Assembly (NCBI GenBank): GCA_964465735.1
Contig: CAYXKT010000002.1
Coordinates: forward strand, 472 to 64,471
Length of the DNA stretch: 64,000 nucleotides
Direction: 5' to 3'
Source: an uncultured bacterium
GTDB taxonomy: Bacteria > Auribacterota > Erginobacteria > Erginobacterales > Erginobacteraceae
Shown piece by piece: positions 130 through 23,474 of the stretch. The stretch's first letter is position 1, and the number at the start of each line of letters is the position of its first letter. Both the position numbers and the translations under genes were made by a program. The notes under the pieces were generated by a model that was given only the letters and a program-made list of their open reading frames with translations, had not been told where the DNA came from and did no database searches.

Positions 130-2361
130 CTAATTCTCAGTGTTCTCTGTGGTCTTGTCGTTTTCCATAATATCTTTTTCTGTAACCGGAAGCGAGAGAC
201 GGAGGTTGGTAAGCCGGCGGGCCCGGGAACTGGGGACTCCTCCCCGGGAGTAGAACATTGTCTCCCCAAAACCTCCTTCCGGCCAGGGGGGAGCGCCAAT
301 AAAGACCCAGGCGCCCAGCGGCCAGCGACTGCCGACAAAGATCCTTCCTCCGGGCGCGGTAAATTCCCAGCGGGACCACTGATCGGGAGCATCCGCCCGA
401 AGCAGGGGTGACTCTCCAACCAGGCGGTCCGGAAGACCATCATCTTCAGTATCGGCATAAACCACGAACCGGAACGCCCCTTCCTCACCACCTCGGGCGT
501 GGGCCAGTTCAACCACCACACTGGCCCCCTTTTCCGGAGGCGGGATAACTTCCCAGACTCCGGAGTCGAAGTAGGTGGCGTGCTCCTCGCCCACGGCCCA
601 GAGCCCGGAATGGGAGGGAGCGAGAATCTTCCCCTCATCCATCCCTCGACCGGTCTCCGAATCGAGAACCTCGACAATCAAGGACTCCAGGGTCTGCCGT
701 TGGAAACGCTGATCCCAGCAGACCGGGTCATTGGCTCGGCGAGGAAGACGCCGACCGGCCCAATCAACAATGTCGTCGGCCAGCAACGGGCGAAGTTCGA
801 CGCGTTCCCGATTAATCTCCCTCAGGGGATAGCGGGAAGTAAGGTAGCGCAGCTCGGTGCTGAGGTTGGTATGCCAGCCAACCAGAAGGACATAATCCCC
901 GGGCCGGACATTGCCCCGGGAGTTCCGGGTATAACCTCGGATCGGGGTCTTCGCCCACCAGCCGACCTTGCGCAGTTCGCTGGAGTAAACTGTCCGCCCC
1001 GAGAGGTTATCCCGGATATATTCGGCCGAACGACGGATATCAGCGAAACTATCCCGCGACCAATAAAGAGCAAAACCGGTAAAGACCGTAGAGGCAAGCA
1101 GAGAGATAGCGATAACAATCCAGCCGGCCAAACGGAGAAACCGTTTCCGAAAAGAGACCAGAAAGTCGGCCCCGTAACCGGCCAGGGGGAGAGTGGCCGC
1201 GGCCAGCATATAGAGGTAGCGCGGGGTCCACCACTTGTTGACTACCAGGGTGTAGAAAACGGCGGCAAACAAATAGAGAAAGCAGACTGTCCAACCGAAC
1301 CGGAGGGGATGACGGCGGGAACGGAAGAGGGAGAGGATCAGTCCCAGTCCGGCCAGAACCGCCACCGGATAGACGAGGACATAGGGATAGGCCTTGAGAT
1401 AGTAACTAAGCCAGATCATCCAGCGGCCGGAGATCGAACGCATCGAGGTCCGCATACCTTCCTGGTACCAGGTACTCATTGCCAGGTGATGCTGCCAGAC
1501 ATAGAGAAATATATAGGGTCCGGCGGAGATCAGCAGCCCGAACAGGGCGAGCGGACGGCGGTACCACCATCCGGCCCTCCGGCCTGATCCGGGGGCAAGA
1601 TAGGAGATCACAAGCAGAACCAACCCCCAGATCGCGCCCAAAAAGAGCAGGCGGCTGATCAGCACCGGTCCGGGGAGAGTGACCGGAAAGAAACCGAGGA
1701 GGAAATCAAACGCGCAGACAGTGAGATTCTCCACCCCGGGGAGAAAGTGGAAGCCAAGGGCAAGGAGACCCCAACCGGACAATAAAATACTCAAAACCGG
1801 AAGGAGAGTCCGCTCCCGACGGGCAGTAAGGAGAAAATAGAGAAAGACGGCCACCACCGCCACCGGGACCAGGACCAGACCGGTCGGGTAAGTGAGAAGC
1901 GCCACCCCACCGGAGAAGACCCCGACCGCCAGCCACCAGGGAGAACGGATTTCAAAGGCACGGAAGATCCCATAGAAAAAGAGGAGAACAAAGAAAGAGT
2001 ACATCCCGTGGGGGAAGATCCGCAGCGACCAGCGGAAGATCAGGGGAGAAACTGTATAAAAGAGAATGGTTAGAAACGCCGCCCGCCGGTTATAGACCGC
2101 CCGAGCCAGTCCGGAGAGGGGAAAGACGGCCAGAGAGGCAAAGATAATCGAGACCAGACGGCCAGCCAGTTCAAGATCGCCGCCGAGGTGGTTGAGCGAT
2201 TTCAGGGCAAAAGGGTACGCGGGGAGAATGATTGTCCCCCGGATCCGTTCCAGCGCGGTCATATAGTCCACACTGTCGGTATAGGCCGCCGGATGCCAGT
2301 TGAGGAAGAGCAACCGGGCGACCAGATTAACCCCAAAAATCAGCAGTACCCACTTTCTCAT
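130..2361 (-). CDS. GT-C fold integral-membrane glycosyltransferase (ArnT/PMT-like, GT39/GT83-type) with a C-terminal periplasmic domain of about 140 aa
   Basis: 743 aa. The N-terminal two-thirds has more than 10 predicted TM helices with an ArnT/PMT-like layout. The C-terminal soluble domain is homologous to the C-termini of 2696..4774 and 5166..5879. ATG at 2361 in an intergenic context. Confidence 0.6.
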   Translation of the reverse strand: MRKWVLLIFGVNLVARLLFLNWHPAAYTDSVDYMTALERIRGTIILPAYPFALKSLNHLGGDLELAGRLVSIIFASLAVFPLSGLARAVYNRRAAFLTILFYTVSPLIFRWSLRIFPHGMYSFFVLLFFYGIFRAFEIRSPWWLAVGVFSGGVALLTYPTGLVLVPVAVVAVFLYFLLTARRERTLLPVLSILLSGWGLLALGFHFLPGVENLTVCAFDFLLGFFPVTLPGPVLISRLLFLGAIWGLVLLVISYLAPGSGRRAGWWYRRPLALFGLLISAGPYIFLYVWQHHLAMSTWYQEGMRTSMRSISGRWMIWLSYYLKAYPYVLVYPVAVLAGLGLILSLFRSRRHPLRFGWTVCFLYLFAAVFYTLVVNKWWTPRYLYMLAAATLPLAGYGADFLVSFRKRFLRLAGWIVIAISLLASTVFTGFALYWSRDSFADIRRSAEYIRDNLSGRTVYSSELRKVGWWAKTPIRGYTRNSRGNVRPGDYVLLVGWHTNLSTELRYLTSRYPLREINRERVELRPLLADDIVDWAGRRLPRRANDPVCWDQRFQRQTLESLIVEVLDSETGRGMDEGKILAPSHSGLWAVGEEHATYFDSGVWEVIPPPEKGASVVVELAHARGGEEGAFRFVVYADTEDDGLPDRLVGESPLLRADAPDQWSRWEFTAPGGRIFVGSRWPLGAWVFIGAPPWPEGGFGETMFYSRGGVPSSRARRLTNLRLSLPVTEKDIMENDKTTENTEN

Positions 2362-2454
2362 AACCGGTAATTCGGACTCCGGTCCGGAATCCTATCAAAG
2401 CATTTCGTTGGTTTTATTAACTAATGTCTGGACGTAAACCCGATATCACGGAGA

Positions 2455-2695: not shown

Positions 2696-4774
2696 CTATC
2701 CCTCCTCCGGTTTTTCCCCGGGGGGAAGGATCTCGATAACCAGATTGGTGGAACGAGGGCCGGTGGAGAGAGTCGGAGGTCCGGAGGTGGAATAATACAT
2801 CGTCGGCGACAGATCCCGGTGGCCCCAGCCGGTCCGGTCAAAGAAGACCCGGGCGCCTTCATTCCAGGTATTGCCCACGAACAGCCTACCTTCCGGAGCG
2901 GGCAGAGTCCAGTAACTCCAGTCACCGGCCGAGCGGGCGGTGAGAAAAGATGACCTCCCCAGTTCCAGATCGGGGCGGCCGTCGTTATTCTTATCTCCAT
3001 AGGCCACGATAAAGAATCCACCTTCGTTGCCGGAAGCGGCGTGCTGGACCTTAACGGTGACTATATCTCCGGTTGAATATGGCTTGACCACCTCCCAGAC
3101 CTGGAGATTATGGCCGGGTGTAGTCCTCAGCTGGATATGCGGGGCCGGTACCCGCTCACCGCTGACCCGAAAGGCCCCCGCCCCGCTCAACTCCTTCAGC
3201 GTCGATTGGAGCTGGAGTTGAGAGATCAAGTTGAATATTCCCAGTGCCAGAAGACCAATCAGGGTTATCCAGACCGCCCTCATCATCCCCGGCGAGGATC
3301 CGGCCCCCGGTCCTCCAGGCAGATCGTCCCCCCGTTTCCTGCTGAAATTCATCATCACGACACCTCCGGTCAGCCAGATTAAGTACAGCGGCAGGAGACT
3401 GAGCTGTCCCCGCAAACCCGCCATCTGTCCCAGGTTGAAAGCGTTAAAAGAACTGGAGACGACGGAATTGCTCTGGAAGGTCGTCTCCGGGTTGATTGAA
3501 AGATAGCCCCCGAAAAAGGAGTGAAAGTAAAGATCCCGGAAAGGATGCCGGGCATACTCCTCGAAACGGACGGCGGTGGCGGTCAGAACTAAAAAGATCG
3601 AGACCGCCGCCAGAAGGGCCGAGATCCGCGGAAAGCGGACCACGAAAAAGAAGGCCAACAGCACCATATACGGCAGCATCTCCATCGCGTGCCGCGGACC
3701 AAATGCTTTTCCCCCATAGTAATAAGGATAGAGGGTATTGATAAAGAAATACCCCGAAATCAGGACTATCAGAATCGGCAAAAGGGACCGCGACCCTTTC
3801 TCTCGGGCCAGATAAAAACCGCCGGGGAAGAGCAGGATGAGAAAGGGAGAGAGATGAAAAAATCCGCGGAAAGGACCAAAGGAGGTCTGGTAGAGGGCCT
3901 CCATCAACTTCCGAGTCTGGAAGCCGAGGAGGGGTCCGTCCTTGTAGGCGCTATGGGCAGCGGCCCGCTTGTCGAAGTAGGCGATATACCAGGGGTTATG
4001 GAAAACCAGGTAGTTATATCCGATCAAGATGGCGGCCGGCAAAATCAGGCCGGCCAGAAACCAGCCGAAACGGAAAGTTCGGCTCCCGTTCCGGAAAAAC
4101 CCTCGAACCAGGCAATAGACCGAGAGCAGGGTGACGATAGCCGCCACGGGATACTCGGTCACCACCGCCCAGCCCCCGGCCAGTCCGGAGAGAAAGATAA
4201 AGAGCGATCCCCGGGGAGCGTCCGGCTCCAGAACCAGGTATTTCAGGAGGAGATAAAACGAGATCACGGTCAGAACCGAACTGACCATATGGCCGTAGAT
4301 CACGGTGGAATAGGCAAAAGCGGAGGTACCGAGAAAAAGGGCCAGAGTAGAGATCAACCTCGGGGCGATGGCTGAATGGAAGAGGCCGAGCAATCGGAAG
4401 AAGACCACCCCGCCTAAAGCGCAGGGCAGGCCGACGATCAGCACCCCCACCAGCCAGCAGGAGAAGAGATGGTAGAAATCCTCCGAGAAGAGACCGGTCA
4501 GGGTACCCTTCAGCCGGGAGATCAGATAGTAGGGGCCGACCCCGACCAGACTCATCCCCGGCGCCTTGTTGGGATAGTTCTTTCCCTCGACATTGACGAT
4601 ATCGTGGGTGGGAACCCGGACACCCCCGAAATGGAGCTGCCCCTGCTCCACCACTGCCCGCATCTGGCCCAGCCGAGCGTTCTGATTCGCCCCCCCGCCC
4701 TGATAGAAATAGGCGAAGCTGAAGAACAAGACGAAAAAGAGAGTTATCTCCAATTTATAATTTCGCAAAATCAA
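2696..4774 (-). CDS. GT-C fold integral-membrane glycosyltransferase (ArnT/PMT-like) with the shared C-terminal domain
   Basis: Multi-TM N-terminal region followed by the conserved C-terminal domain (VxVxHAAxG..GGFxIxAY.D...DG.PD...S.FLT...W). I trimmed the ORF-track start (4972) to the TTG at 4772-4774 (on the minus strand, GAGGA sits 5 nt upstream), because the longer N-terminus would be encoded by the intergenic repeat element at 4895-5004. Confidence 0.5.
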   Translation of the reverse strand: MILRNYKLEITLFFVLFFSFAYFYQGGGANQNARLGQMRAVVEQGQLHFGGVRVPTHDIVNVEGKNYPNKAPGMSLVGVGPYYLISRLKGTLTGLFSEDFYHLFSCWLVGVLIVGLPCALGGVVFFRLLGLFHSAIAPRLISTLALFLGTSAFAYSTVIYGHMVSSVLTVISFYLLLKYLVLEPDAPRGSLFIFLSGLAGGWAVVTEYPVAAIVTLLSVYCLVRGFFRNGSRTFRFGWFLAGLILPAAILIGYNYLVFHNPWYIAYFDKRAAAHSAYKDGPLLGFQTRKLMEALYQTSFGPFRGFFHLSPFLILLFPGGFYLAREKGSRSLLPILIVLISGYFFINTLYPYYYGGKAFGPRHAMEMLPYMVLLAFFFVVRFPRISALLAAVSIFLVLTATAVRFEEYARHPFRDLYFHSFFGGYLSINPETTFQSNSVVSSSFNAFNLGQMAGLRGQLSLLPLYLIWLTGGVVMMNFSRKRGDDLPGGPGAGSSPGMMRAVWITLIGLLALGIFNLISQLQLQSTLKELSGAGAFRVSGERVPAPHIQLRTTPGHNLQVWEVVKPYSTGDIVTVKVQHAASGNEGGFFIVAYGDKNNDGRPDLELGRSSFLTARSAGDWSYWTLPAPEGRLFVGNTWNEGARVFFDRTGWGHRDLSPTMYYSTSGPPTLSTGPRSTNLVIEILPPGEKPEEG

Positions 4775-5165: not shown

Positions 5166-5879
5166 ATGAAAATATTCGACCGTAATTTCTGGGGGACAAT
5201 TTTGATCTGGGTGGGGGTGGTTATCTTCCTGGTAGTAATTTACGACATTATCCGGCCGGTCTTTCCCGGACACCCCCCCTACCCGATTATCCAGTCGATC
5301 CAAAACTTTTTCTCCCCCTCTCGGGGACCGAATAAACCACCGCCCGCTGCCAAAAAGGCCCGGGCACGCCGCCCGACGGTGGCGAAAATCCCGCCAAAGT
5401 TTGCCGGCGACGCGCGGATGATGACCGCCAATTCTTATTCTCCGGCGGGGCATTACTCACAGTGGGTCTGGGCGGTTAAACCGGACCGGCAAACTGAGGA
5501 CACGGTCCGGGTCGAGGTTGCCCACGCCGCCCCGGGAATGCCGGGGGGGTTTTCGATCATTGCTTACGCCGACACCATCGGTGACGGTTGGCCCGACCAG
5601 AAGGTGGCGGAATCGGAATTCCTCACCGGTGACCAGGCCGGCCAATGGTCGATCTTTAACTTCACCGCCGGGGAAGAACCTCTGTTCATCGGGTATTCCT
5701 GGGCGGAGGGCCAGGATACTGTCATCTTCCGAAGTAACGGGGGATGGCCTGAGAAAGATTTTCCCCTGGAAGACCGATTCTTTTACCTGATCGACGGACC
5801 TGGTTCCAAGTCGGCCGGGCCGGCCTATACCAATCTCCGGGTATCATTCTCCCGGCAATCAACCCAGGAGAATTCTTAA
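5166..5879 (+). CDS. Small signal-anchored protein carrying the same C-terminal domain as the two neighbouring GT-C enzymes
   Basis: 237 aa. One N-terminal TM helix (FWGTILIWVGVVIFLVVIY), a Pro/Ala/Lys-rich linker, then a domain of about 130 aa that aligns with the C-termini of 130..2361 and 2696..4774. Confidence 0.5.
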   Translation: MKIFDRNFWGTILIWVGVVIFLVVIYDIIRPVFPGHPPYPIIQSIQNFFSPSRGPNKPPPAAKKARARRPTVAKIPPKFAGDARMMTANSYSPAGHYSQWVWAVKPDRQTEDTVRVEVAHAAPGMPGGFSIIAYADTIGDGWPDQKVAESEFLTGDQAGQWSIFNFTAGEEPLFIGYSWAEGQDTVIFRSNGGWPEKDFPLEDRFFYLIDGPGSKSAGPAYTNLRVSFSRQSTQENS

Positions 5880-6647: not shown

Positions 6648-8774
6648 ATGCCCTGGAATCCAACAGTCAGACTGATCTTCCTCTTCAGCGGGGTATTTTA
6701 TATCCTGATCGGGATCGGCTTGAAGGGTGGCTTCACTTTTCCCCGCTACCGGCAGCGCCGGATCGGCGGCCTGATCTGGACAATCACCGGGGGGGTGATC
6801 GTTTTTCTCGCCGCCGCCACCGCCGGAGCTGTCGGCTTCCCAGCCCAGCGGATGATGGGGCGCCTGGTTCTCCCGGCGATCAAGCTGGGGGAACTGCTTG
6901 CCGCCTGGGTCCCGCCGCATTCGGCTTCCATTACCGCCGAGGGGTTGACGCTGGTCATCCTGATCGCCGGCGGACTCCTCCTCGGGAAGAAGAAGACCGC
7001 CCGCCCCCTGATCCTGATCCTCTTCGCCGGCGGAGCGGCCCTGGCCGGAGGTTTCTTTCTCAGCCGTTACTCCCTGCCCTCGGCCTATCTCCTTTTCGGG
7101 TTGGCGGTTCTCTACGCCGCGATGAGCGTCCGAACCGGGGACAGCCGGCGGACCGGCAAAGAACCTTTTCTCTCCCCGACCGCCGCGATGCTGACCGTGT
7201 CGGCAATTATTCTCCTCGGCTTTATTCTGAGAACCTACGGACTGGGCGAGGTCTCCTATCGCTTTGATCACTACGAGGCCGATTATGGACGGGAAGCACT
7301 GAAAGTCCTGGCCGGACACCATAACGCCAATCTCTGGACTTCCACGATCTGGCGAGGCTTGGGGCACCTCAACTATTCCCCGGTTTACACTTACCATACC
7401 GCCCTCTTCTTTCAACTCTTCGGGGCCACCATCGTCTCCCTGAAGCTGGTCTCCGTGACCTGGGGGTTGGCGGCCCTGCTTTTGACCTACGCAATCGCCT
7501 CCACTCTCTTCGGGAGAAAGACCGCCCTGATTACCATCTTTTTCCTGGCCGTCTCCCCGCTGCATATAAATTACAGCCGTTTGGGCCTCCTCCTCGGCTC
7601 CACGTTGACAATCAGCCTGCTGATCGTCTTCCTGCTCCTGCGGGCCCTCTTGAAGGAGAAGGTGATCTATTATCTTCTTCTGGGGGTGGCGGCCGGATTC
7701 GCCGGATATTTCTACTCCCCGGCCAAGTACCCGGTCCTGCTGGCCGCGGTTCTGATGGCCGCCTACACGATCTTCAAGCGAAGATGGATTTTACGGAACT
7801 GGCCAGGGTTGATCGTCCTCGGGCTGACGGTGATCATCCTGATGACCGCGCTCAATATCCCGGCCCTGGACCTGATGGCGCCCCGCTTCGCCGGCTACGA
7901 ATCAGTCTGGCACCGGACGGCCGACCATCAATATTCTTCCCAGGCCAATTACCGGAGGGGGATCCCCCTGGTCTGGGAAAACTGGGTGAAACTGGTCCGA
8001 AGTTTCTTCCTGGAGAGAAACTTCAGCTACGACCCCTGGCCCCAAGGCAACCTCTACTTCAACCCGGTCATCCCCCCCCTGGTCCTGCTCGGGATCGCCA
8101 TCAGCCTGGCCCGAATCCGGAAGGCAAATTACCGACTGCTCCTCTTCCTCGCGGCGGCCTTTTTGGTCCCCAACCTCCTCTCCCGGCCGCCGGTAATGGT
8201 CCGACGGATGATGGTCTCCTGGCCTTTCCTCTATTGTCTGGCAGCGATCCCCTTAGCCGAGCTGATCGGGCAAGCCGGTCAACAGGCGGGGCGGGCGGCG
8301 GGGCGGACAGCGGGCGCGATCATTATCGGGGGCCTAATCCTGTTCGGGGCCTACAACACCACCATCTTCTTCCAGAGCCGCGAGCCGGCGGGGAGATGGG
8401 AGGAAGAACGCTTCTTCGACGAGTACGCCAAGAGCCTGATCGACGATTATTATCTCTTCATCGTCCCCATTCAGCGGGGGCTGAGCGAGGAGACAATCCG
8501 CTTCCTCCTCCACGAGAAGATCGAGGCCGGGGTGCGGGGCTACCGCTTTCTCCCCCCCCGGGAGGTTGAAGATTTGTCCCGGGAAGAAGTGCAAAAACAT
8601 CTCCCGGCCGCGGTCGTCGCCGCTTCGGGCACGGTTGCCCGGGCGGTTCTGGAAAAGACCGGGGAGAGACTGGGAAAAGACCGGATCGAGGAGTTCCGGG
8701 ACAAGTTCAACCGGCCCCGAGCCGTCACCATCTTCTTTGAAAGTCCCGGGGGCACACACCTGATTGTTGAATAA
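6648..8774 (+). CDS. GT-C fold integral-membrane glycosyltransferase (ArnT/PMT-like, GT39/GT83-type)
   Basis: 708 aa with many TM helices. The region RFDHYEADYG...GHHNANLW...YSPVYTY...AVSPLHINYSRLG is typical of the ArnT/PMT N-terminal catalytic loop and TM organisation. Soluble C-terminal region of about 150 aa. Confidence 0.6.
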   Translation: MPWNPTVRLIFLFSGVFYILIGIGLKGGFTFPRYRQRRIGGLIWTITGGVIVFLAAATAGAVGFPAQRMMGRLVLPAIKLGELLAAWVPPHSASITAEGLTLVILIAGGLLLGKKKTARPLILILFAGGAALAGGFFLSRYSLPSAYLLFGLAVLYAAMSVRTGDSRRTGKEPFLSPTAAMLTVSAIILLGFILRTYGLGEVSYRFDHYEADYGREALKVLAGHHNANLWTSTIWRGLGHLNYSPVYTYHTALFFQLFGATIVSLKLVSVTWGLAALLLTYAIASTLFGRKTALITIFFLAVSPLHINYSRLGLLLGSTLTISLLIVFLLLRALLKEKVIYYLLLGVAAGFAGYFYSPAKYPVLLAAVLMAAYTIFKRRWILRNWPGLIVLGLTVIILMTALNIPALDLMAPRFAGYESVWHRTADHQYSSQANYRRGIPLVWENWVKLVRSFFLERNFSYDPWPQGNLYFNPVIPPLVLLGIAISLARIRKANYRLLLFLAAAFLVPNLLSRPPVMVRRMMVSWPFLYCLAAIPLAELIGQAGQQAGRAAGRTAGAIIIGGLILFGAYNTTIFFQSREPAGRWEEERFFDEYAKSLIDDYYLFIVPIQRGLSEETIRFLLHEKIEAGVRGYRFLPPREVEDLSREEVQKHLPAAVVAASGTVARAVLEKTGERLGKDRIEEFRDKFNRPRAVTIFFESPGGTHLIVE

Positions 8775-14593: not shown

Positions 14594-16819
14594 CTATTTC
14601 GGGGATAAACCGGACTGGTCTATAATCAGGGGTTTCCCTTCGATCAGGAAGTAGTAACCGGCCGGTTGGCCGTCGAGACCAAGCAATTCTCGCGGTTGGT
14701 CCGGGAGAGCGAATTCTTCCATCACTTTCCGGATGGCGTCCCGGTTGGAAACAACCCCGATCACCGCGGCCGCCTGCCCCGTCTCCTTATGTTCCTTCAG
14801 GAACTCTCTCATTCCATCCTCCCCGGCCCGGTATTGCCGCCAGGGGTCGGGCACTACCTCCCGGTAGTCGTAATAACGGTTGATGGTAGTACGATGACGG
14901 TGAAGTCGTCCGGTGGCGGAGTAGCTGAGAAAATCCACCACCCGGCCCAGCCCAAGCTGGGTCATAATACGGGGACAATGGATAGAAAGGCGGTAGCCTT
15001 CCTGAAGCAGGGTGTCAGAGAGCCGGCCGATCGCGGTCTGGTCGGGCTCCCGGCGGTTGAAGAACCGCTCCAGACCGAAGAGAGCGATTACCGACAGAAA
15101 AGCTGTCAGGAACAGAACCCCGCAGCCGAACGGCAGTTTTCGCAGTCGGCCGGGAAAGATATCGGTCAGCGCCCGGCCGGTCTCCTGAATGAACGCCCCG
15201 GCCAGGAGGGCGGCCAGGGGAATGCCGAGAATGAGATGCCGGGGAACCGACCCGATCGGCCGAACCAGAATCATAAACGGGCCCAGGGCCGGAACCAGCC
15301 AGAGAAGGAGGACGGCCCCCCGGGTCCGCTTCCAGTTGCCCAGGCTCCAGCCCAACCCGAGCAGGGCCAGAAGGAAGGAGGCCCGGTTGAGCAGCCCCCT
15401 TCTCGGGGGATAAGTAAAACTCCCCGAATCCCGGGCCCGGCAGAGGTTCCGGTAGAGAATATCCAGGTTCTCCATTAACTGGCCGGGGATCAGTTCCCAG
15501 CGGATCGACATATCCGCCCGGGATTGGCTGCCGATAAAGGGGTAGATGCTCCCCCCCTTGGAGCTGGTGTAGGCGGTATCGGCCACCATCTGGATATCCC
15601 CGGCCTGGATTATGAAGAAGACCGCGAAGACGGCGCCGAAGGCCGCCATCTTGGCCCAGTCGCGGCGAAAAAATCCCCGGTAGAAAATGCTCCGGTGAAT
15701 CAGAACCGCCGCCGCCAGGGGGACCAGAAACCGGGTTGGAAGATAAAAGAAGTGGTTAAAACTCAGCAAAAATCCAAGGGCCAGGTAGATGACGATCCGC
15801 CCGCTCCGGACGGCTTTCAGGAGCAGGAGGAGAACCAGCAGAGTAAAGGCAATGCTCATACTCCCGAACATCCCGGCCCGATAGATGGTCAGATGCCAGG
15901 GCGAAAAGGTGAGCAGCACCCCCGCCGTTATCCCCGCCGTCTCCCCGATCAGGCTTCTCCCCAGCAGATAGATAAGAAAAACACTCACCACCGCCCAGAA
16001 GACGGAACTGGCCCGAAAGACCACCAGGTGGACCCCGCCCAGCCGCATCAGAAAGGCCGCCGGGATGGTGAAGAGCGCCGAAGTGGACGAGTCGGCCCCA
16101 TAGGAACGGGGAAAATAGCTCCAGATCATCTCCCGGGTCGGCTGACTGCCCTCCAGGAACTGGACCGCGGCCAGGGCATTGGTAGCCTCGAACTCGTCGA
16201 ACCGAGGGTTGCGATCCAGGGCGTGAAAACCGATGGCCAGGTTCAGGACCATCAGGATCAATAACACCGGGAGGACAGAAAGGAGCCAACGCTTCCTCTC
16301 CATCGCCTGCTTCCTCTTCCCCCAAACCGCGCCCAGCAACGCGGTCAGAACCGCCACCAGGTAAAACCAGCGGGCGGAGGCGTTGTCTTTTCCGGTGATC
16401 AGCATCTCCGCCCGAACCCCGGAGAGCAGGGCGAGGGCATACCAGAAAAAAGCCGGCCGGCCTCGGGTCAGGGCAAACAGACCCAGTAGCAGGAAGAGGA
16501 CCGCCCCCCCCACGATCAGGTTAGCCGAGTGGGCTAAAAAATACTCCTGGAGGAGATGGGCCGCTTTCCACGCCTCCCGGAGGATGGGTTCGAGAGAAGG
16601 AAGAGAACCGCCGGGGTAAAAGGCGGTCCGTTTGGCCTGGTTAAGCACCAGGGCGAAACTCAGCCCAAAGAGCAGCACCCCCCCAACGACCAAAAGAATC
16701 GCTCCTCTGATCCAGGCAGTTTTCCCCCGGCGAAGGAACAGCCCCACTATGATCAAAACTAACCCGATCAGGGCCGGAACAAAGAGCGGGTTATCAATCA
16801 AACCGGGAGTGGCGGACAT
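14594..16819 (-). CDS. GT-C fold integral-membrane glycosyltransferase (ArnT/PMT-like)
   Basis: Polytopic membrane protein of about 740 aa (TLLVLLLLLKAVRSGR..., SPWHLTIYRAGMFG loop) directly downstream of a soluble GT2 polyprenyl-P-sugar synthase. I set the start at the ATG 16817-16819 (GAGGAGAG 5 nt upstream). The ORF-track start at 16951 would overlap the upstream gene by 120 nt. Confidence 0.55.
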   Translation of the reverse strand: MSATPGLIDNPLFVPALIGLVLIIVGLFLRRGKTAWIRGAILLVVGGVLLFGLSFALVLNQAKRTAFYPGGSLPSLEPILREAWKAAHLLQEYFLAHSANLIVGGAVLFLLLGLFALTRGRPAFFWYALALLSGVRAEMLITGKDNASARWFYLVAVLTALLGAVWGKRKQAMERKRWLLSVLPVLLILMVLNLAIGFHALDRNPRFDEFEATNALAAVQFLEGSQPTREMIWSYFPRSYGADSSTSALFTIPAAFLMRLGGVHLVVFRASSVFWAVVSVFLIYLLGRSLIGETAGITAGVLLTFSPWHLTIYRAGMFGSMSIAFTLLVLLLLLKAVRSGRIVIYLALGFLLSFNHFFYLPTRFLVPLAAAVLIHRSIFYRGFFRRDWAKMAAFGAVFAVFFIIQAGDIQMVADTAYTSSKGGSIYPFIGSQSRADMSIRWELIPGQLMENLDILYRNLCRARDSGSFTYPPRRGLLNRASFLLALLGLGWSLGNWKRTRGAVLLLWLVPALGPFMILVRPIGSVPRHLILGIPLAALLAGAFIQETGRALTDIFPGRLRKLPFGCGVLFLTAFLSVIALFGLERFFNRREPDQTAIGRLSDTLLQEGYRLSIHCPRIMTQLGLGRVVDFLSYSATGRLHRHRTTINRYYDYREVVPDPWRQYRAGEDGMREFLKEHKETGQAAAVIGVVSNRDAIRKVMEEFALPDQPRELLGLDGQPAGYYFLIEGKPLIIDQSGLSPK

Positions 16820-16830: not shown

Positions 16831-17619
16831 TCAGACTTCCCCGTCCCGATAAGCCGCGCTCTGCCGACGCCCGCGGAGAAATAATATTCGCAGGTAACCC
16901 CGGGCGGTCCGGATGATTTTCATCTTGCTCTTTCCCTGCCGTCGGGACCAATCAACCTTGAATTCAACCTCGGAGATGGACAGACGCAGCTCGACCATCT
17001 TGTAGAGCAACTCCACCATACATTCAAAACCCGGACTCTCAACGATCCCGGGACCGAAAACTTCCTGGAGCCGGAGAATAGCTCCACCCCGGAAAAGCCG
17101 AAAAAAACTACTGAAAGTATTGAGCCCCCCCAAGCCAAGACCGACCTTGACCAGGGCGTTGGCCAGATGACTGATCAGGAGCCTGAAGGTCGAGACCTCA
17201 GAAAAGCCGCCCCCATAAGTATAGGGACTGGCCAGAACGACATCGTAACCTTCCCGGATCCGGACCAGCATCCGGGAGAGGGTCTCCAATCCGGAAGTAT
17301 TATCAGCTTCCAATGTCGCCACCAGATCGTTTCTCCGCAGACTCCTCGAAAGCCGGGAAAAAGCGGCGGCAAAGGAACGGCCAGGGCCAAGATTGCGGAC
17401 GTTGGTAATAAGATCGCAGCTCAGGCTGGACCCCTGTTGGCGGATGATATCCCCTCCCCGATCCGAACTCCCATCGTCCACAGCCAGGACCCGAACCCGG
17501 TACCGGGGATGATTGGCGGCAAATTTTTCGATCTCTGAAAGTAACCGGGGAAGATTGGGGGCCTCATTATAAAAGGGAAAGACCAGATAGAGACACTGAG
17601 CAGCGGAAGAATCAGTCAC
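16831..17619 (-). CDS. GT2 polyprenyl-phosphate glycosyltransferase (Dpm1/ArnC/GtrB-like, soluble form)
   Basis: 262 aa. LYLVFPFYNEAPNL, VLAVDDGSSD and the DxD region. No C-terminal TM helices. 8-nt overlap with the upstream epimerase gene. Confidence 0.7.
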   Translation of the reverse strand: MTDSSAAQCLYLVFPFYNEAPNLPRLLSEIEKFAANHPRYRVRVLAVDDGSSDRGGDIIRQQGSSLSCDLITNVRNLGPGRSFAAAFSRLSRSLRRNDLVATLEADNTSGLETLSRMLVRIREGYDVVLASPYTYGGGFSEVSTFRLLISHLANALVKVGLGLGGLNTFSSFFRLFRGGAILRLQEVFGPGIVESPGFECMVELLYKMVELRLSISEVEFKVDWSRRQGKSKMKIIRTARGYLRILFLRGRRQSAAYRDGEV

Positions 17620-18598
17620 GGTTCCCCTCCCGCACCGCCTTGATGGTCATCTTCAGGGCGTCTTCAAAGGAAACCTGCGGGTGGTAGCCTAAGATTTCCT
17701 GGGCCCTGGTCAGATCCGGACACCGCCGAGTTATGTCCCGATACCGGCCGAAAACTTCGGAGAAAGGTATAAACTTCAGTTTCAAATCCTTCCCGGTGGC
17801 GGCCAGCCGGTGAATTATCCGAGCGGCCTTGACGACGCTGACCTCCTCGGTATTGCCCAGGTTGATGATATTCCCCACCGCCGCCGGCTGCTCCATCGCC
17901 AACACCGTTCCCCGCACCAGGTCAGAGACATAAGCCATTGAGCGGGTCTGGCTGCCGTCGCCGTGGATCACCACTTCCCGGTCATTGAGGACCGCCCGGA
18001 CAAAGATCGGGATATGCCCCCCCGACCACTGAAAACTGGAACGGGAGCTAAATCCTCCGAAATATCTCAAGACCACCACCGGCAGTCCGTACTGCTGGTG
18101 ATAACCAAAGGCCAGCTGTTCGGCGTAAAGCTTGGAGACGGCGTAACTCCAGCGTTTGATCATACTCGGCCCGATCAACAGGTCCCCATCCTCCTGGAAA
18201 GGGAGATCGGGGGACATCCCGTAAACATCGGAGGTGGAGGCGAAGATTACCTTGGCGCCGGTGGAGCGGGCCGCTTCCAAAACATTCTCGGTCCCCCGGT
18301 TATTGACCAGCAGGGTGGGAAGTCGGAAGTCCTTCTCCCCGATCTTCTTCACCGCCGCCAGATGGACTATGGTCTGCACATCGCGGGCAAGTTCCCGGAC
18401 CAGACCGCTATCGAGGACATCCCCCTGAACAAACCGGGAATTGGGATCATTCCGCCAACGGGCGATATTCTCCAACCGGCCAAAACTCAGGTTATCCAGA
18501 CCGATAACCCGGTAATTACCGCTCTCCAAGAGAGTGTCGAGAAGATGAGAACCGATCATCCCCGCCACCCCGGTTATCAGGATCTGTTTCTTGCTCAT
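17612..18598 (-). CDS. NAD-dependent sugar-nucleotide epimerase/dehydratase (extended SDR)
   Basis: 328 aa. Rossmann motif ILITGVAGMIGSHL. Catalytic YAVSK (YxxxK). Typical UDP-sugar epimerase/decarboxylase length. Confidence 0.8.
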   Translation of the reverse strand: MSKKQILITGVAGMIGSHLLDTLLESGNYRVIGLDNLSFGRLENIARWRNDPNSRFVQGDVLDSGLVRELARDVQTIVHLAAVKKIGEKDFRLPTLLVNNRGTENVLEAARSTGAKVIFASTSDVYGMSPDLPFQEDGDLLIGPSMIKRWSYAVSKLYAEQLAFGYHQQYGLPVVVLRYFGGFSSRSSFQWSGGHIPIFVRAVLNDREVVIHGDGSQTRSMAYVSDLVRGTVLAMEQPAAVGNIINLGNTEEVSVVKAARIIHRLAATGKDLKLKFIPFSEVFGRYRDITRRCPDLTRAQEILGYHPQVSFEDALKMTIKAVREGNRD

Positions 18599-18883: not shown

Positions 18884-19777
18884 TTGACAATTCGGGGTCC
18901 GTTCTCCTATTATACAAGTATGAAAGATATTTCTGTCATTATACCGGCTTACAACGAAGAGGCGGGGATCGGGCAAGTGCTGGCGGAGGTGGAGGAAGTT
19001 ATGCGGGGTAGCGGACTTGACTTCGAGATCATCGTGGTCAACGACGGGTCGACCGACCGGACAGCGGAGATTGTCCAGAAGACCGGAGCGGTTCTCCTGG
19101 AGCAGCCGGCCAACCGGGGCTACGGGGCCTCGCTGAAGCTGGGGATCCATCGGGCGAAGTTCGAACGGGTCCTGATCCTGGACGCCGATGGAACCTACCC
19201 GCCGGAAGCGATCCCCCGGTTGCTGGAAAAAGCCGATGACTTCGAGATGGTAGTGGGGTCCCGAACCGGGGAGAACGTTGCCATCCCGGCCTTCCGGCGG
19301 TTCCCCAAATGGCTGCTGAAGAAGCTGGCGGATTACCTGGTGGGGATGAAGATACCCGACCTCAACTCCGGGCTGCGGATCTTCCGGAAGTCGGCGGCGG
19401 AAAAATTTCTTCCCATCCTCCCCGACGGCTTCTCCTTCACGACCACGATCACGGTCGCCTTCCTTTCCAGCAGTCTTCCGGTACACTATGCCCCGATCGA
19501 CTACTACAAGCGTTCCGGGCGTTCCAAGTTCCGCCCGCTTCAGGATACCCTCAATCTTTTAAACCTGATCATCCGGACCAGCCTCTACTTCAACCCCCTG
19601 AAGATCTTCGTCCCTGCCGGCACCTCCCTGCTGGTGGCCGGGTTGGCCCTTCTGGTCCACCGGCTGATCGCCGGGGGGGGAGGGATGGTAACCACGGTGG
19701 TATTGCTGATGGCCGGACTCCAGCTCCTCGCCCTGGGGTTGCTGGCCGACCTGATTGATAAAAGATCCTCCCAATGA
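18884..19777 (+). CDS. GT2 polyprenyl-phosphate glycosyltransferase (ArnC/Dpm1/GtrB-like, membrane-anchored)
   Basis: ISVIIPAYNEEAGIGQVL, IIVVNDGSTD, LDADGTYPPE, and two C-terminal TM helices. The start is either the TTG at 18884 (GAGGAAG 11 nt upstream) or the ATG at 18920 (MKDISVII). Confidence 0.8.
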   Translation: MTIRGPFSYYTSMKDISVIIPAYNEEAGIGQVLAEVEEVMRGSGLDFEIIVVNDGSTDRTAEIVQKTGAVLLEQPANRGYGASLKLGIHRAKFERVLILDADGTYPPEAIPRLLEKADDFEMVVGSRTGENVAIPAFRRFPKWLLKKLADYLVGMKIPDLNSGLRIFRKSAAEKFLPILPDGFSFTTTITVAFLSSSLPVHYAPIDYYKRSGRSKFRPLQDTLNLLNLIIRTSLYFNPLKIFVPAGTSLLVAGLALLVHRLIAGGGGMVTTVVLLMAGLQLLALGLLADLIDKRSSQ

Positions 19778-21195
19778 AGGTTCTTCTGATCAACCCGCCC
19801 CGGGAGAATGAACTGACCGGGAACAATCCGGCCCTGATCGACGAAAGCCGGGGATATAACCCACCCCTGGGTCTGCTTTATCTGGCCGGCTACCTGGAAG
19901 CAAAAACCTCTTATCAAGTCGTGATCTGCGACGCGCAGGTTGAGGAGATCTCCTACCCGCAACTGGGAGAGCGGATCCGGGAGGCCGCGCCCGACCTGGT
20001 CGGACTGACCGCGATGACCTTCACTCTCCTTGACGTGATCAAAACCGCTCGGCTGGTCAAGGAAATCTCCCCTTCCCTGCCGGTGATGGTCGGCGGGGTC
20101 CACGCCTTTCTCTACCCGGAGGAGACCGTTAACCTCCCTGAGATTGATTATGTCTTGAGCGGTGAGGGAGAAGAGAGTTTCGCCCTTCTCCTGGACCGGC
20201 TGGAGAATCAGGGCGACCTCAATACCGTTCCCGGCCTGACCTACCAGAAAGACGGCCGGATCTGTTCCAGCCCAGCCCCGCCGCTCTGCGCCGATCTCGA
20301 CTCCCTCCCCTTCCCCGCGCGGCAGCTCACTCCCTGGCAAAAATACAGTTCGGTGATGGCCAAACGGCAGCCGATCACCACGATGTTCACCAGTCGGGGC
20401 TGTCCCTTCCGCTGCTCCTTCTGCGCCCGCCCCCACCTGGGAAAACAGTTCCGCTACCGTTCGGCTGAAAACGTGGTCGATGAGATGGAAGAGTGCGTAA
20501 AGTTGGGGATCCAGGAATTTCTGATCTACGATGACACCTTCACCGTCAACCGCGACCGGGTGCTGGCGGTCTGTGAGGAGATCCGCCGCCGGAAGCTGGC
20601 GATCGGCTGGGATATCCGGGCGAGGGTGGATTGTGTGGACGAAGAGATGCTAAAGCAGCTTAAAGCCACCGGTTGCGAACGGATCCACTACGGGGTGGAG
20701 GCGGGGACGGAGAAGATTTTGCGGGTCCTGAACAAGGGAATCACCAGGAAACAGGCTCGGGATACGATCGCCCTGACCCGGCAGATCGGGATCGAGACTC
20801 TGGCCTACTTTATGATCGGATCCCCAACCGAGACCCGGGAGGATATCCTGACAACAATCCGGTTCGCGCTGGAGCTGAAACCGGACTTCGTGCATATTAC
20901 TATCCTCTGTCCCTTTCCAGGGACCGCAATCTATGAGCAAGGACTAAAGGAAGGCGTCTTCTCCCGGGACCACTGGCGGGATTTCGCCGCCAACCCGACC
21001 CCCGACTTCTCCCCGCCTTACTGGAATGAGCTTCTCTCTGATACCGAGCTACAGGAACTCTTGCAATTAGCCTATAAAAAATTCTATACTCGCCCGTCTT
21101 ATCTCCTGAAAAGAGCTCTCCAGGTCAGATCTCTGCGGGAGTTTAAAACCAAGTTCAATGCCGGCTGGAAAATTTTCCGGATGAAAAATCGGTAA
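19774..21195 (+). CDS. Cobalamin (B12)-binding radical SAM enzyme (class B)
   Basis: 473 aa. N-terminal B12-binding/Rossmann-like region. CxxxCxxC radical SAM motif in TSRGCPFRCSFCARP. ATGA overlap with the upstream GT2. Confidence 0.8.
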   Translation: MKVLLINPPRENELTGNNPALIDESRGYNPPLGLLYLAGYLEAKTSYQVVICDAQVEEISYPQLGERIREAAPDLVGLTAMTFTLLDVIKTARLVKEISPSLPVMVGGVHAFLYPEETVNLPEIDYVLSGEGEESFALLLDRLENQGDLNTVPGLTYQKDGRICSSPAPPLCADLDSLPFPARQLTPWQKYSSVMAKRQPITTMFTSRGCPFRCSFCARPHLGKQFRYRSAENVVDEMEECVKLGIQEFLIYDDTFTVNRDRVLAVCEEIRRRKLAIGWDIRARVDCVDEEMLKQLKATGCERIHYGVEAGTEKILRVLNKGITRKQARDTIALTRQIGIETLAYFMIGSPTETREDILTTIRFALELKPDFVHITILCPFPGTAIYEQGLKEGVFSRDHWRDFAANPTPDFSPPYWNELLSDTELQELLQLAYKKFYTRPSYLLKRALQVRSLREFKTKFNAGWKIFRMKNR

Positions 21196-21416
21196 GGATT
21201 CAAGACCCCCGATCGGCTTATCTCGTCGGATCCAAATGAACACCCGGAATGCTTTGAACTGATTCACCTGCCGGATAAACTGGCAGGAGCCTGGAGAAAA
21301 TAGGGGGGCCGAAATAGCGCCCCCGGCGGGCTTCTCCGGCCGGAGCAAAAATTCTCAGACTACCAGCAGGTAAAACCAAATAAGCTATTATCGGAAAAAC
21401 GGATAAATTAAATCAA

Positions 21417-23474
21417 ATGGCGAAGAAACGGAAAATACGGCCGGAGGCGACGACCCCGGCAGCGATATCTTTTAAGTACCGGCCGACGGCAAAGAAAATT
21501 ATCACCGGCCTCTTTCTGCTGGCAGTGGTTCTCTCTTTCTTTCTCCGATTCTACGACCTGGAACTTAAGCCACTCCACCACGACGAGGGGGTCAACTCCT
21601 GGTTCTTGCTCAACCTGAAAGCTGACTTCCCCGGCGGCTGGACCTACGACCCCTCAAACTATCACGGGCCCTTCCTCTTCTTCACCCATATCATTCCCCT
21701 GGCCATTTACGAAAGCGTCTTTTCGCTACGCTGTATGGTGGCCCTCTTCGGCTCCCTGACCATCTGGCTCCTCTGGCCGCTGCGGCGAAAAATCGGCCGG
21801 GTCGGGGTAACGGCGGCCGCCTTTCTCCTCGCCATCTCTCCCTCCCATCTCTTCTTCTCCCGGACCAACATTCACGAAATTTACCTGGTCTTTTTCACCC
21901 TGGGGACAGTGGTCGGGATTGTCCGACTCTGGGAGACTAAGAAACCAATTTATCTGATCCTGGCCGTCGCCTGCTGGGCCTGGGTGATCACGGTCAAGGA
22001 GACCTACATCATCACCGCCGGGTCCTGGTTCTGGGCCGCAGTCGGGACCTACATCTGGTTCTCCATCACCCGCCGGAATGACGAAATTCCACCCAAATAC
22101 GCGGCCCGAGAAATGGGGGGGTGGCTGAAGACTCACTATGCGGCGATCTGGTTAGCGGCGGGAGTCTTCGTCCTGATTATCATCATCTATTATTCCTCCC
22201 TCTTCACCAGCCTGAAAGGAACCACCAGCGATCTGATCGAAAGCCTGATGATCTGGCAGAAGACCGGGACCAAGGGTGCCGGACACGAGAAACCTTTCTT
22301 TTACTGGTGGTGGCTGCTGCGGGACTTTGAGCTACCGATCTTCATCATCGGGGTCCTCGGACTCGCTCTGGCGACAGTCCGGAGAAACGCCTTTGCCGTC
22401 TTCTGTGTCATCTGGGCGGTAGTGATGTTTTTAATCCATTCCTCAATCGCCTACAAGACCCCCTGGCTGGCGCTTAACTTTATGCTTCCCCTGGTTCTCC
22501 TGGCCGGTTTCTTCTGCGAGCAGCTTTATCGTTCTCTGAGAAAGACCCCGGTACTGGCCGGGGCGGCCGGAGTCATCTTCGCCGGTGGACTTCTGGCCTG
22601 GGGGACCGGGATCAGCCGGACAGTCAATTTCATCGAATACGACGATGATCGCCATATGATCGTCTATTCCCAGACCCGACGCGACCTCAACGACCTGGTC
22701 GCGGCGATCGAGGAGTACGCCCACGAGCAGGGCCAGGGCTACACCACCGAGATCAAGATCGTCTCCGACGAGTACTGGCCGCTCCAGTGGTATTTAAGGG
22801 AATATCCCCGGGTAGGTTTCTGGGGAAAGGTGCTCCCCGATTCCGATGGACCGATCGTGATCGGCCGTTCCACCACCCGGAACGAACTGGAAAAAGTTCT
22901 CCAGGACACCTACTCCTCCGAACTCTACAGTGTCCGGCCGGGGCTGGATCTTTATCTCTACACCCGCCTCCACCGGGGGAGAGTCCCGAAAGAAGAACTC
23001 CCGGCCCCGGAGCCGATGGGGATAACAAAGGCTGATCTCCAACCGGGACTGGTCGGCAGTTACTTCAACAAGGTTAATCCGGTCGGCCGGGCCGACGATA
23101 CCCGGATTGAGGATCAGTTTGAATTTCACTATAACAGCCCGGCGGAGACCAGGGCCGGGCTCGGGTTTTCGCCGCCCTTAAGCATTCTCTGGGAAGGAAT
23201 AATCGAGATCCCCCGGGCAGGGACCTATGTTTTTGCCACCGAGTCCGACGACGGCTCCTGGATCTTTATCGGCGAGCGGCAGGTAGTCGATAACGGCGGG
23301 GCCCACGCAATGCAGTATCGCTCCGGAGAGATCACCCTGGAGGAAGGGTTTTATCCACTGAAGATCAAGTACTTCGAAGTCGGCGGCGGGGCGGTCCTCA
23401 AGGTCTTCTGGTCCCCCCCGGGGGAGAGCGAGGAGCCGATCCCTCCCGGGCGCCTCTTCCACCAGAAACGGTAA
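21417..23474 (+). CDS. Polytopic membrane protein (GT-C-like, LKPLHHDEGVNSWF motif) fused to a C-terminal PA14 carbohydrate-binding domain
   Basis: 685 aa. About 11 TM helices in the N-terminal 400 aa. The C-terminal 145 aa (GLVGSYFNK...DDGSWIFIGERQVVDNGGAH...GFYPLKIKYFEVGGGAVLKVFWSPPG) matches the PA14 domain pattern. The PA14 part spans about 23040-23474. Confidence 0.6.
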   Translation: MAKKRKIRPEATTPAAISFKYRPTAKKIITGLFLLAVVLSFFLRFYDLELKPLHHDEGVNSWFLLNLKADFPGGWTYDPSNYHGPFLFFTHIIPLAIYESVFSLRCMVALFGSLTIWLLWPLRRKIGRVGVTAAAFLLAISPSHLFFSRTNIHEIYLVFFTLGTVVGIVRLWETKKPIYLILAVACWAWVITVKETYIITAGSWFWAAVGTYIWFSITRRNDEIPPKYAAREMGGWLKTHYAAIWLAAGVFVLIIIIYYSSLFTSLKGTTSDLIESLMIWQKTGTKGAGHEKPFFYWWWLLRDFELPIFIIGVLGLALATVRRNAFAVFCVIWAVVMFLIHSSIAYKTPWLALNFMLPLVLLAGFFCEQLYRSLRKTPVLAGAAGVIFAGGLLAWGTGISRTVNFIEYDDDRHMIVYSQTRRDLNDLVAAIEEYAHEQGQGYTTEIKIVSDEYWPLQWYLREYPRVGFWGKVLPDSDGPIVIGRSTTRNELEKVLQDTYSSELYSVRPGLDLYLYTRLHRGRVPKEELPAPEPMGITKADLQPGLVGSYFNKVNPVGRADDTRIEDQFEFHYNSPAETRAGLGFSPPLSILWEGIIEIPRAGTYVFATESDDGSWIFIGERQVVDNGGAHAMQYRSGEITLEEGFYPLKIKYFEVGGGAVLKVFWSPPGESEEPIPPGRLFHQKR

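Follow-up and report, generated by a model that had tools for sequence, protein, structure and literature searches.

Glycosylation outside the cytoplasm from polyprenyl-phosphate-linked sugars is a general route by which bacteria diversify their surface glycans, lipids and proteins. The polyprenyl-phosphate monosaccharides are made at the cytoplasmic face of the membrane by family 2 glycosyltransferases (GT2) of the GtrB/ArnC type, and glycosyltransferases of the GT-C fold draw on polyprenyl-(di)phosphate-linked donors at the extracytoplasmic face. To our knowledge, the worked examples come nearly all from Proteobacteria, Firmicutes and Actinobacteria. Here we describe a cluster of GT-C genes in a stretch of 64,000 nucleotides (positions 472 to 64,471 of contig CAYXKT010000002.1, GenBank assembly GCA_964465735.1; hereafter the window) from an uncultured bacterium of the phylum Candidatus Auribacterota. 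Five GT-C proteins (A to E) and a candidate sixth (F) are encoded together with two GT2 proteins (GT2a and GT2b), an extended short-chain dehydrogenase/reductase (SDR), a B12-binding radical S-adenosylmethionine (SAM) enzyme and two smaller proteins (I and J). A first-pass annotation of the window had proposed a periplasmic protein O-glycosylation system acting on secreted proteins encoded in the same window. The reading that we tentatively favour is a lipid-linked-donor system that would glycosylate a surface glycan outside the cytoplasm, the polysaccharide of the adjoining locus being the best candidate and a somewhat more likely acceptor than the proposed proteins.

Among the described counterparts, the three-component systems flip a lipid-linked sugar, and a GT-C enzyme then modifies the glycan post-polymerisation, as with GtrA/GtrB/GtrC of the Salmonella and Shigella O antigens and PPPRS/MATE/GT136 of Citrobacter youngae (PMC11127046). 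The cluster resembles them by the combination of a candidate polyprenyl-phosphate-sugar synthase with GT-C proteins, by GT-C proteins bearing a C-terminal ectodomain similar to carbohydrate-binding modules (CBM), by its setting beside a polysaccharide locus and by its sugar-tailoring enzymes. Unlike them, it has not one GT-C gene but five, which represent at least three subfamilies and are of PMT_2 and TIGR03663 types, not of GtrC or GT136 types, no GtrA, SMR or MATE gene accompanies them, and a B12-radical-SAM gene stands between synthase and GT-C. A second counterpart is the Agl22/Agl23 pair of Haloarcula hispanica, a GT2 and a TIGR03663 protein which are reported to handle hexose-P-dolichol, with purified Agl23 translocating a lipid-linked oligosaccharide in proteoliposomes and serving both N- and O-glycan synthesis (PMC11182771, citing Lu et al. 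2020). E likewise passes TIGR03663, keeps the DE and HGP motifs and is paired with a GT2, an association of GT2 and TIGR03663+PA14 genes that is also found in Brocadia and another bacterial lineage. It differs in being a bacterial protein with a C-terminal PA14 domain, with a radical SAM gene lying within the pair, and GT2b is a homologue and not an equivalog of Agl22 (99 bits against a cutoff of 375); moreover Agl23 is reported as a flippase serving protein glycosylation.

Streptococcal GtrB/PgtC2 and PgfS/PgfE/PgfM1/PgfM2 glycosylate Ser/Thr-rich disordered regions (PMC12041528). A GT2, an SDR and more than one GT-C, with a Thr/Pro/Ser-rich secreted protein in the same 64 kb, recall these systems (PMC12041528, PMC5856776). 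Their transferases belong to the YfhO family, to which none of the five GT-C proteins belongs, and the PgfS model gives 70 bits for GT2b and 34 bits for GT2a against a cutoff of 500; furthermore, the organism studied here is diderm, and its candidate substrate lies 33 kb off and is not conserved in the related loci examined. The ArnA/ArnC/ArnT pathway offers a similar SDR-GT2-GT-C operon logic, and among solved structures ArnT is nearest in sequence to the E family, but ArnB, ArnD and ArnE/F are lacking here (no aminotransferase, deformylase or SMR gene was found in 1-24 kb), scores are far under cutoffs, and the ectodomains are additional. Finally, the mycobacterial decaprenyl-phosphate-dependent enzymes EmbA/B/C, AftA-D, PimE and Mpt also combine many GT-C subfamilies on one glycan with CBM ectodomains, and a distant homologue of B bears PF09594; phylum and envelope are different, there is no sequence-level membership, and the window yielded no UbiA-type phosphoribosyltransferase and no DprE1/E2. 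By curated thresholds, the proteins are thus assigned to PMT_2 (A, C, D and E) and TIGR03663 (E), and not to the GT39/Pmt, YfhO/Pgf or Arn families. What is new relative to these prototypes is the number and diversity of the GT-C genes, the conserved B12-radical-SAM gene, the lack of a small flippase and the rare ectodomain that A, B and I have in common.

The five GT-C open reading frames (ORFs) of the first-pass annotation are all present: A (130-2361, minus strand, 743 aa, about 11 transmembrane (TM) helices), B (2696-4774, minus strand, 692 aa), C (6648-8774, plus strand, 708 aa), D (14594-16819, minus strand, 741 aa) and E (21417-23474, plus strand, 685 aa). For B, the TTG start at 4774 was preferred to the longer ORF because its homologues have about 692 aa, and for D the ATG at 16819 was preferred because the longer ORF would overlap the GT2a gene by 120 nt. 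Four proteins exceed the Pfam gathering score of PF13231 (PMT_2; 26.1 bits), namely A, C, D and E with 48.6, 54.5, 30.4 and 34.2 bits respectively; B and F fall below it (F: E 4.4). B, which has no Pfam match, was counted as a GT-C by its fold: the AlphaFold2 model built from a 31-sequence alignment (pLDDT 79) was assigned to the GT-C fold by Foldseek with probability 1.00, ArnT being among the top structural matches, and it displays the polytopic core and the first external loop with a catalytic acidic residue that define the fold, D58 being the invariant acidic residue of that loop. Distant homologues of B bear PF09594, PF13231 or a PA14 domain, the latter at the place of B's own C-terminal domain. 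Five GT-C genes are thus confirmed, and profile searches assigned none of the GT-C candidates to a non-glycosyltransferase family. Their description as paralogues holds for C and D (24% identity over 548 aa, E 1e-20) and does not extend to A, B and E, the membrane domains of which are mutually unrecognisable by BLAST or phmmer and show no detectable similarity to C or D; at least three subfamilies are represented. In C, about 6 additional TM helices at the N-terminus precede the PMT_2 core, which begins at aa ~244. A sequence search of A, B, C and F against PDB chains matched no GT-C. Ser/Thr protein acceptors have been demonstrated for the GT-C families PMT (PF02366, PF16192) and YfhO; at E <= 10, none of A to F matched PF02366 (PMT, GT39) or PF16192 (PMT_4TMC), and none of A to E matched YfhO (PF09586).

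A conserved part of the cluster is a three-gene unit formed by GT2b, the radical SAM gene and E. GT2b (18884-19777, plus strand, 297 aa; PF00535 107 bits) has the build of GtrB, ArnC and dolichyl-phosphate mannose synthases (DPMS), with a GT2 domain followed by two C-terminal TM helices at 241-291. Its top NCBIfam matches are all polyprenyl-phosphate-sugar synthases (AglJ 127, Dol-P-hexose transferase 99, ArnC 88.5, PpgS 83 and PgfS 70 bits), each under its equivalog cutoff (ArnC 529, PgfS 500 and Agl22-type Dol-P-hexose transferase 375 bits), making it a good candidate for a polyprenyl-phosphate-sugar synthase of the GtrB/ArnC/Agl22 type. Of the two Dpm1/ArnC-like synthases announced by the first-pass annotation, this one stands; GT2a, which has no TM helix and reaches 53 bits with PF00535, is a weak candidate. 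The true start of GT2b is possibly the ATG at 18920 (MKDISVII...). The best sigma-70-like promoter of the 4.7-24.3 kb region (TTGACA, 18 nt, TATTAT; 11/12) overlies the TTG start of GT2b, and a start at 18920 would imply an unusually short leader; the promoter and terminator scan was otherwise little informative.

The B12-binding radical SAM enzyme (19774-21195, plus strand, 473 aa; PF02310 and PF04055) is encoded by a gene overlapping that of GT2b by 4 nt. BchE (238 bits) and HpnJ (212 bits) are its nearest NCBIfam models, both under cutoff. A hopanoid-related reading of the GT2b and radical SAM pair, by analogy with HpnI/HpnJ, was rejected since the HpnJ score of 212 is below the cutoff of 577 and no hopanoid genes are present; GT2b as HpnI or HpnB was likewise rejected (25 bits). 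Orthologues of GT2b (60-80% identity) are always found directly upstream of the radical SAM gene, and the latter is kept between GT2b and E in every Auribacterota relative with 61-83% identity. The lipoprotein predicted from J (23509-24213, plus strand, lipobox LGGC), which has no family assignment, is encoded directly 3' of E in all close relatives (55-79% identity).

E is assigned to TIGR03663, the Agl23 family, with 226 bits for a cutoff of 126.25 over profile positions 4-431 of 435, and also matches PMT_2 (34.2 bits) and, at its C-terminus, PA14 (62 bits). Across 22 family members, D56, E57, H83, G84 and P85 do not vary; D56-E57 is the acidic motif of the first external loop. The E-family sequence profile reaches a single solved GT-C, ArnT (5ezm, E 5e-5), across the whole membrane core. 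Its PA14 domain is closest to those of the anti-sigma-I factor RsgI3 (6qe7; 69 bits, profile E 2e-38). A precomputed PF02366 match exists for some distant members of the E family, and not for E itself. Outside the phylum, proteins that combine TIGR03663 with PA14 are frequent in anammox Planctomycetes, Coatesbacteria and Elusimicrobia, where the genes usually adjoin a GT2 (Brocadia and one further lineage) or DUF2298. In the Brocadia locus L009 (1-5111, CP091279.1), three successive PA14-bearing proteins are encoded near the TIGR03663 gene, an 824-aa PMT_2+PA14 protein, an 801-aa PA14 protein and the 666-aa E homologue, and they adjoin a type II secretion operon.

Three of the five GT-C proteins carry an ectodomain, PA14 in E and a beta-sandwich in A and B. 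The C-terminal domain of A (aa ~595-730, ~135 aa) shares 43% identity with that of B and 37% with I (5166-5879, plus strand), a 237-aa protein formed by this domain alone with one TM helix; the three copies, of ~135 aa each, are encoded at 133-579 (A, minus strand), 2699-3130 (B, minus strand) and 5433-5876 (I, plus strand), and a fourth carrier was found in a related locus (L013, 5092-6855). The domain corresponds to no Pfam model (none of the 95 members scanned has an attributable Pfam match) and is rare, with 280 cluster representatives among 1.84 billion proteins. It is characterised by the invariant pattern H...G...D...PD...S...G and elsewhere occurs in fusion with PMT_2 and with various enzymatic, sensor or binding domains, including Ser/Thr kinases, FGE-sulfatase, peptidase C25, transglutaminase, C-type lectin and FecR. 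It was modelled as a beta-sandwich with structural neighbours that are lectin- or CBM-like but weak, with modest scores.

D is the last gene of a second operon, on the minus strand, including the SDR (17612-18598, minus strand, 328 aa) and GT2a (16831-17619, minus strand, 262 aa), with an overlap of 8 nt between SDR and GT2a and a gap of 12 nt between GT2a and D. GT2a is a soluble GT2 with ArnC (45 bits) and PgfS (34 bits) as best NCBIfam matches, all far under cutoff. The extended SDR (PF16363 178 bits, PF01370 173 bits) is a nucleotide-sugar dehydratase, decarboxylase or epimerase, its closest NCBIfam models being LegB, UDP-xylose synthase (127 bits), RmlB, GalE and the C-terminal domain of ArnA (106 bits against a cutoff of 777), none at cutoff; the gene called an SDR epimerase by the first-pass annotation is real, and its product may instead be a dehydratase or a decarboxylase.

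The nearest genomes are metagenome-assembled genomes of Candidatus Erginobacter occultus and other bacteria of the Planctomycetes-Verrucomicrobia-Chlamydiae (PVC) group, phylum Candidatus Auribacterota, with E homologues of 85-59% identity. The window proteins were mapped for gene order onto nine related loci; loci are designated by L numbers. At least seven other Auribacterota contigs share this gene set in synteny, with amino-acid identities of 50-85%, and its clustering is not due to chance. The three-gene unit of GT2b, the radical SAM gene and E is unchanged in all Auribacterota relatives, including those in which the identity of E has fallen to 50%. In the closer relatives, this trio is adjoined by an A-B-I-C block and one to three further PMT_2 genes, without Feo and Fur genes, and six contiguous GT-C genes occupy 15 kb in L012. 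Orthologues of A (52-83% identity in L012 and L013) and C (58-69%) are found in relatives, and I adjoins B and C in L003, L005, L012, L013 and L094. At 54% identity, L094 retains a B-like fragment, an I-like gene and a D-like gene, the product of which is a probable orthologue of D (38% identity over 593 aa). A second GT2 gene is convergent to the trio in L093 and L094. The grouping of the GT-C genes within 23 kb is therefore real, with the reservation that in the window it is interrupted at 9130-14388 by an iron block on the minus strand (an LbtU-type porin, FeoB, two FeoA and Fur, with a FeoC-like small ORF at 10458-10688). This block is not at this position in L003, L005, L012 and L013 and is, judging from the gene orders, a lineage-specific insertion or a local rearrangement in the window genome.

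The cluster of the closest relatives is flanked by a sugar-nucleotide battery on one side and by J-BBP2-Wza-Wzc on the other. Starting from the gene after the A homologue, L012 (14784-22106) and L013 (14646-22079) display a run of five SDR genes of the epimerase/dehydratase kind followed by genes for a GHMP kinase, a small GT2 and an oxidoreductase of the FAD/amine-oxidase type. The locus is cut by the left edge of the window, relatives extending beyond A, and the equivalent of this SDR/GHMP battery would fall left of window position 1. The E-J-BBP2-Wza-Wzc order is kept in L002-L006 and L008 and absent in L093 and L094. In the window, J is followed on the plus strand by a BBP2/EpsL-like outer-membrane barrel (24237-25430, PF10082 114 bits), a Wza-like exporter (25621-26427, PF02563 with SLBB), a Wzc-like chain-length determinant with a tyrosine autokinase (26436-28478; GNVR, Wzz and AAA_31; TIGR01007 177 bits, cutoff 108) and two methyltransferase genes that precede F. 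The rest of the Wzx/Wzy-type polysaccharide locus extends over 32158-50359 and includes a GDP-L-fucose synthase (32158-33096, minus strand, Fcl model 297 bits), six GT4/GT1-type Leloir glycosyltransferases, a carbamoyltransferase, methyltransferases, the Wzx flippase (41179-42594), a Wzy-like membrane protein (37341-38876, minus strand) with a weak match to models of O-antigen polymerases (E 0.011) and a Wzy_C protein (47716-49305, minus strand, Wzy_C domain 89 bits). A plus-strand ORF at 32149-33093 was rejected as a gene, being a Pro/Gly/Arg-rich shadow of the GDP-L-fucose synthase gene. Wza, Wzc, Wzx and a Wzy-like protein are thus all present, as in a Wzx/Wzy-dependent, Wza/Wzc-exported locus. 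Instead of polymerising, the Wzy_C protein could act as a ligase or as a PglL-type O-oligosaccharyltransferase, and glycoproteins could then arise by this other route.

F (30337-32133, plus strand), a polytopic membrane protein of 598 aa with ~12 TM helices, had been put forward as a sixth GT-C. Only 6 homologues were found, no family matched and its structure model is poor (pLDDT 41). Its sub-threshold alignment with PMT_2 (E 4.4) is colinear over profile positions 4-153, and hhalign against the E family (probability 3.9%, E 0.011) was not significant, the DHVE of F being aligned to the HHDE loop of E; hhalign against the B family was not significant either. These two weak colinear signals make F a possible sixth GT-C.

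The expectation that GT-C enzymes would be served by a lipid-phosphate-sugar synthase for transfer at the periplasmic face agrees with the adjacency of the GT-C genes and a candidate synthase of the GtrB/ArnC/Agl22 type, and this gene content is most simply explained by sugar transfer at the periplasmic face with lipid-phosphate sugars as donors. From it we infer the acceptor as well as the donor lipid, the sugars, the reaction of the radical SAM enzyme and how the work is shared. The system would comprise five GT-C transferases and at least two donor modules and would operate in the manner of the GtrB/GT-C three-component systems. In the first module (18884-23474, plus strand), GT2b, working on the cytoplasmic side, would load polyprenyl phosphate with a sugar taken from a nucleotide sugar, the B12-radical-SAM enzyme, whose gene is translationally coupled, would tailor that sugar or its precursor, and E would carry the lipid-linked sugar to the periplasmic face, transfer it, or both. 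In the second (18598-14594, minus strand), the SDR would convert a nucleotide sugar, GT2a would put the converted sugar on the lipid and D would transfer it. A, B and C would serve as additional transferases that form other linkages or act on other acceptors, and the lectin/CBM-like beta-sandwich of A and B, also present on I, may guide these two. The presence of several distinct GT-C subfamilies argues for several linkages or acceptors, as the first-pass annotation had suggested, rather than for a single ArnT-like step. A more specific proposal, which we regard as speculative, is that the trio makes and uses a polyprenyl-phosphate sugar tailored by the radical SAM enzyme (e.g. by C-methylation, deoxygenation or ring rearrangement), beside four further GT-C proteins with a shared unannotated domain, as an envelope-glycan or glycoprotein assembly line of Auribacterota. 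We know of no description of radical SAM chemistry on a lipid-linked monosaccharide donor for extracytoplasmic glycosylation.

Under the reading of surface-glycan modification, the acceptor would be the polysaccharide of the Wzx/Wzy locus, exported by Wza/Wzc and modified or extended after flipping. A glycan acceptor is favoured because the PA14 domain of E is nearest to those of RsgI3, because A, B and I bear a lectin/CBM-like beta-sandwich (at modest scores) and because the nearest relatives embed the cluster between sugar-nucleotide and export genes. The CBMs of EmbA/B/C, AftD and the GT136 protein ORF12 bind their glycan acceptors (PMC11127046). Several observations weigh against this reading. 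The trio, joined in L094 by the I- and D-like genes, is located among housekeeping genes in L093 and L094, so that adjacency to the exopolysaccharide (EPS) locus may be incidental, and the Wza/Wzc link, considered as a proof of an EPS acceptor, is weakened accordingly; because these loci keep the trio without export genes, the GT-C set and its trio form a conserved unit that is autonomous. No GtrA, SMR or MATE-type flippase was found among the genes and intergenic ORFs of 1-24.3 kb, a function for which the Agl23-like E or the Wzx of the locus could substitute. No priming phosphoglycosyltransferase was recognised in the EPS locus of the window, GT2a resembles polyprenyl-phosphate synthases only weakly, and the acceptor is not readable from sequence. 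Lastly, Agl23, the named member of the family of E, is described as a flippase of lipid-linked sugars, not a transferase (PMC11182771).

This last point leads to an alternative for one component, in which E would be an Agl23-like flippase feeding the other four GT-C proteins, a possibility that we consider doubtful and that would fit any acceptor. E is a bona fide member of TIGR03663, purified Haloarcula Agl23 translocates lipid-linked oligosaccharide (PMC11182771), and the lack of any GtrA, SMR or MATE-type flippase gene in the cluster leaves room for a flipping role. Conversely, E has kept the catalytic-loop signature of GT-C enzymes (invariant D56-E57) and its homology to ArnT, and a protein that only flips lipid-linked sugars would have no obvious use for a periplasmic PA14 domain.

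Protein O-glycosylation, in which polyprenyl-phosphate sugars would be transferred to Ser/Thr of S/T/P-rich linkers such as those of a giant secreted protein of the window, in the manner of streptococcal GtrB/PgtC2 and PgfS-PgfE-PgfM1-PgfM2 or of actinobacterial Ppm1/Pmt, appears unlikely. Its attraction lies in a gene content (a GT2, an SDR and several GT-C) similar to that of the Pgf operon, whose cluster encodes its own Thr-rich adhesin substrates (PMC12041528). Moreover Agl23, the prototype of the E family, serves N- and O-glycan synthesis in Haloarcula (PMC11182771), and the TIGR03663+PA14 architecture is common in anammox bacteria, the S-layer protein of which is heavily O-glycosylated (PMC5088730). 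The first-pass annotation named three secreted proteins with very long Thr/Pro/Ser linkers as substrates. This stands for the 2616-aa multidomain protein (56051-63901, minus strand), in which S/T/P-rich linkers occur six times and add up to 588 residues, with aa 1532-1824 as the longest, and not for two FG-GAP proteins (50616-52037 and 52527-53900, both on the minus strand), each of which has a 12-residue Ala/Pro spacer, APPAPPAPAPSP, and an S/T/P maximum in any 30-aa window of 0.43 and 0.47 respectively. Two of the three proposed substrates are therefore devoid of such linkers, and the sole real candidate is separated from the nearest GT-C by 33 kb, which include a complete Wzx/Wzy locus for polysaccharide synthesis. 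In the nine related loci, examination out to 10 kb from the cluster revealed no homologue of the 2616-aa protein or of either FG-GAP protein, a result that concerns adjacency only, and the large secreted proteins encoded beside distant E homologues display no S/T/P-rich stretch. The ectodomains are PA14 and lectin-like, and the families with demonstrated protein acceptors were unmatched. With one distant linker protein and no conserved adjacency, the O-glycosylation of the Pro/Thr-rich proteins of the window proposed at first is not supported.

A metagenome scan with the first FG-GAP protein alone gave no match. The FG-GAP alignment retrieved 79 loci, nearly all of generic soil FG-GAP proteins and three of full-length relatives, none of these three having a GT-C neighbour, a weak test of co-occurrence. 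One of these loci, L014 (1562-6161, Ga0272443_10013260), encodes a GT2 (240 aa) and a B12-radical-SAM enzyme 34% identical to that of the window upstream of murB, then, beyond murB, a homologue of the FG-GAP proteins with a poly-Thr linker, followed by a second radical SAM gene. It is the only physical link seen between the GT2-radical SAM pair and the FG-GAP secreted family. The pair lying one gene from a poly-Thr protein speaks for O-glycosylation, but this is one locus among three full-length homologues, with murB intervening.

As observations on these secreted proteins themselves, the FG-GAP proteins and the 2616-aa protein share a ~140-aa N-terminal module (EGFD.F..G.RP.GW.F..CN..SD), present four times in the giant protein. 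All three end with VTGA[TP][GA]Y and a stop, and the L014 relative ends with IGACY. This terminus may be a C-terminal sorting or anchoring tag, neither PEP-CTERM nor LPXTG; sorting by a PEP-CTERM/exosortase system was rejected, no exosortase or PEP-CTERM tail having been found.

The decoration of lipopolysaccharide (LPS), by ArnT-like addition of sugars from polyprenyl-phosphate donors to lipid A phosphates or core sugars at the periplasmic face, for which the RgtA-D set of Rhizobium is a parallel, is still less probable. An outer membrane is indicated by the LbtU porin, the BBP2 barrel and Wza, ArnT is the only solved GT-C found by the E profile and also a top structural match of B, and SDR-GT2a-D resembles a minimal ArnA(C-terminal)/ArnC/ArnT set, the SDR matching ArnA at 106 bits and GT2a having ArnC as best match. 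All Arn scores are nevertheless far under the equivalog cutoffs, equivalents of ArnB, ArnD and ArnE/F are lacking in 1-24 kb, CBM-like ectodomains are not a feature of ArnT, and no lipid A or core genes occur in the window or the related loci. That unrelated envelope genes lie near each other by chance without common function, as the unrelated membrane domains of A, B and E and the iron-uptake block parting two groups in the window could suggest, is very improbable given that the set is syntenic and contiguous without this block in relatives down to ~54% identity and that A, B and I carry a common rare domain.

A search of the accessible literature found no paper describing this locus or glycosylation genes in Auribacterota, and none are named in the Auribacterota paper (PMC9324843) or in the Kuenenia S-layer glycoprotein paper (PMC5088730). 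The locus does not yet bear on any long-standing open question. It indicates that an uncultured phylum of the PVC group keeps an unusually large version of this glycosylation route, with five or six GT-C genes and two donor modules, and it constitutes a target for finding a new lipid-linked sugar, for deciding between a flippase and a transferase role of the bacterial Agl23-family proteins and for defining a new carbohydrate-binding-like domain.

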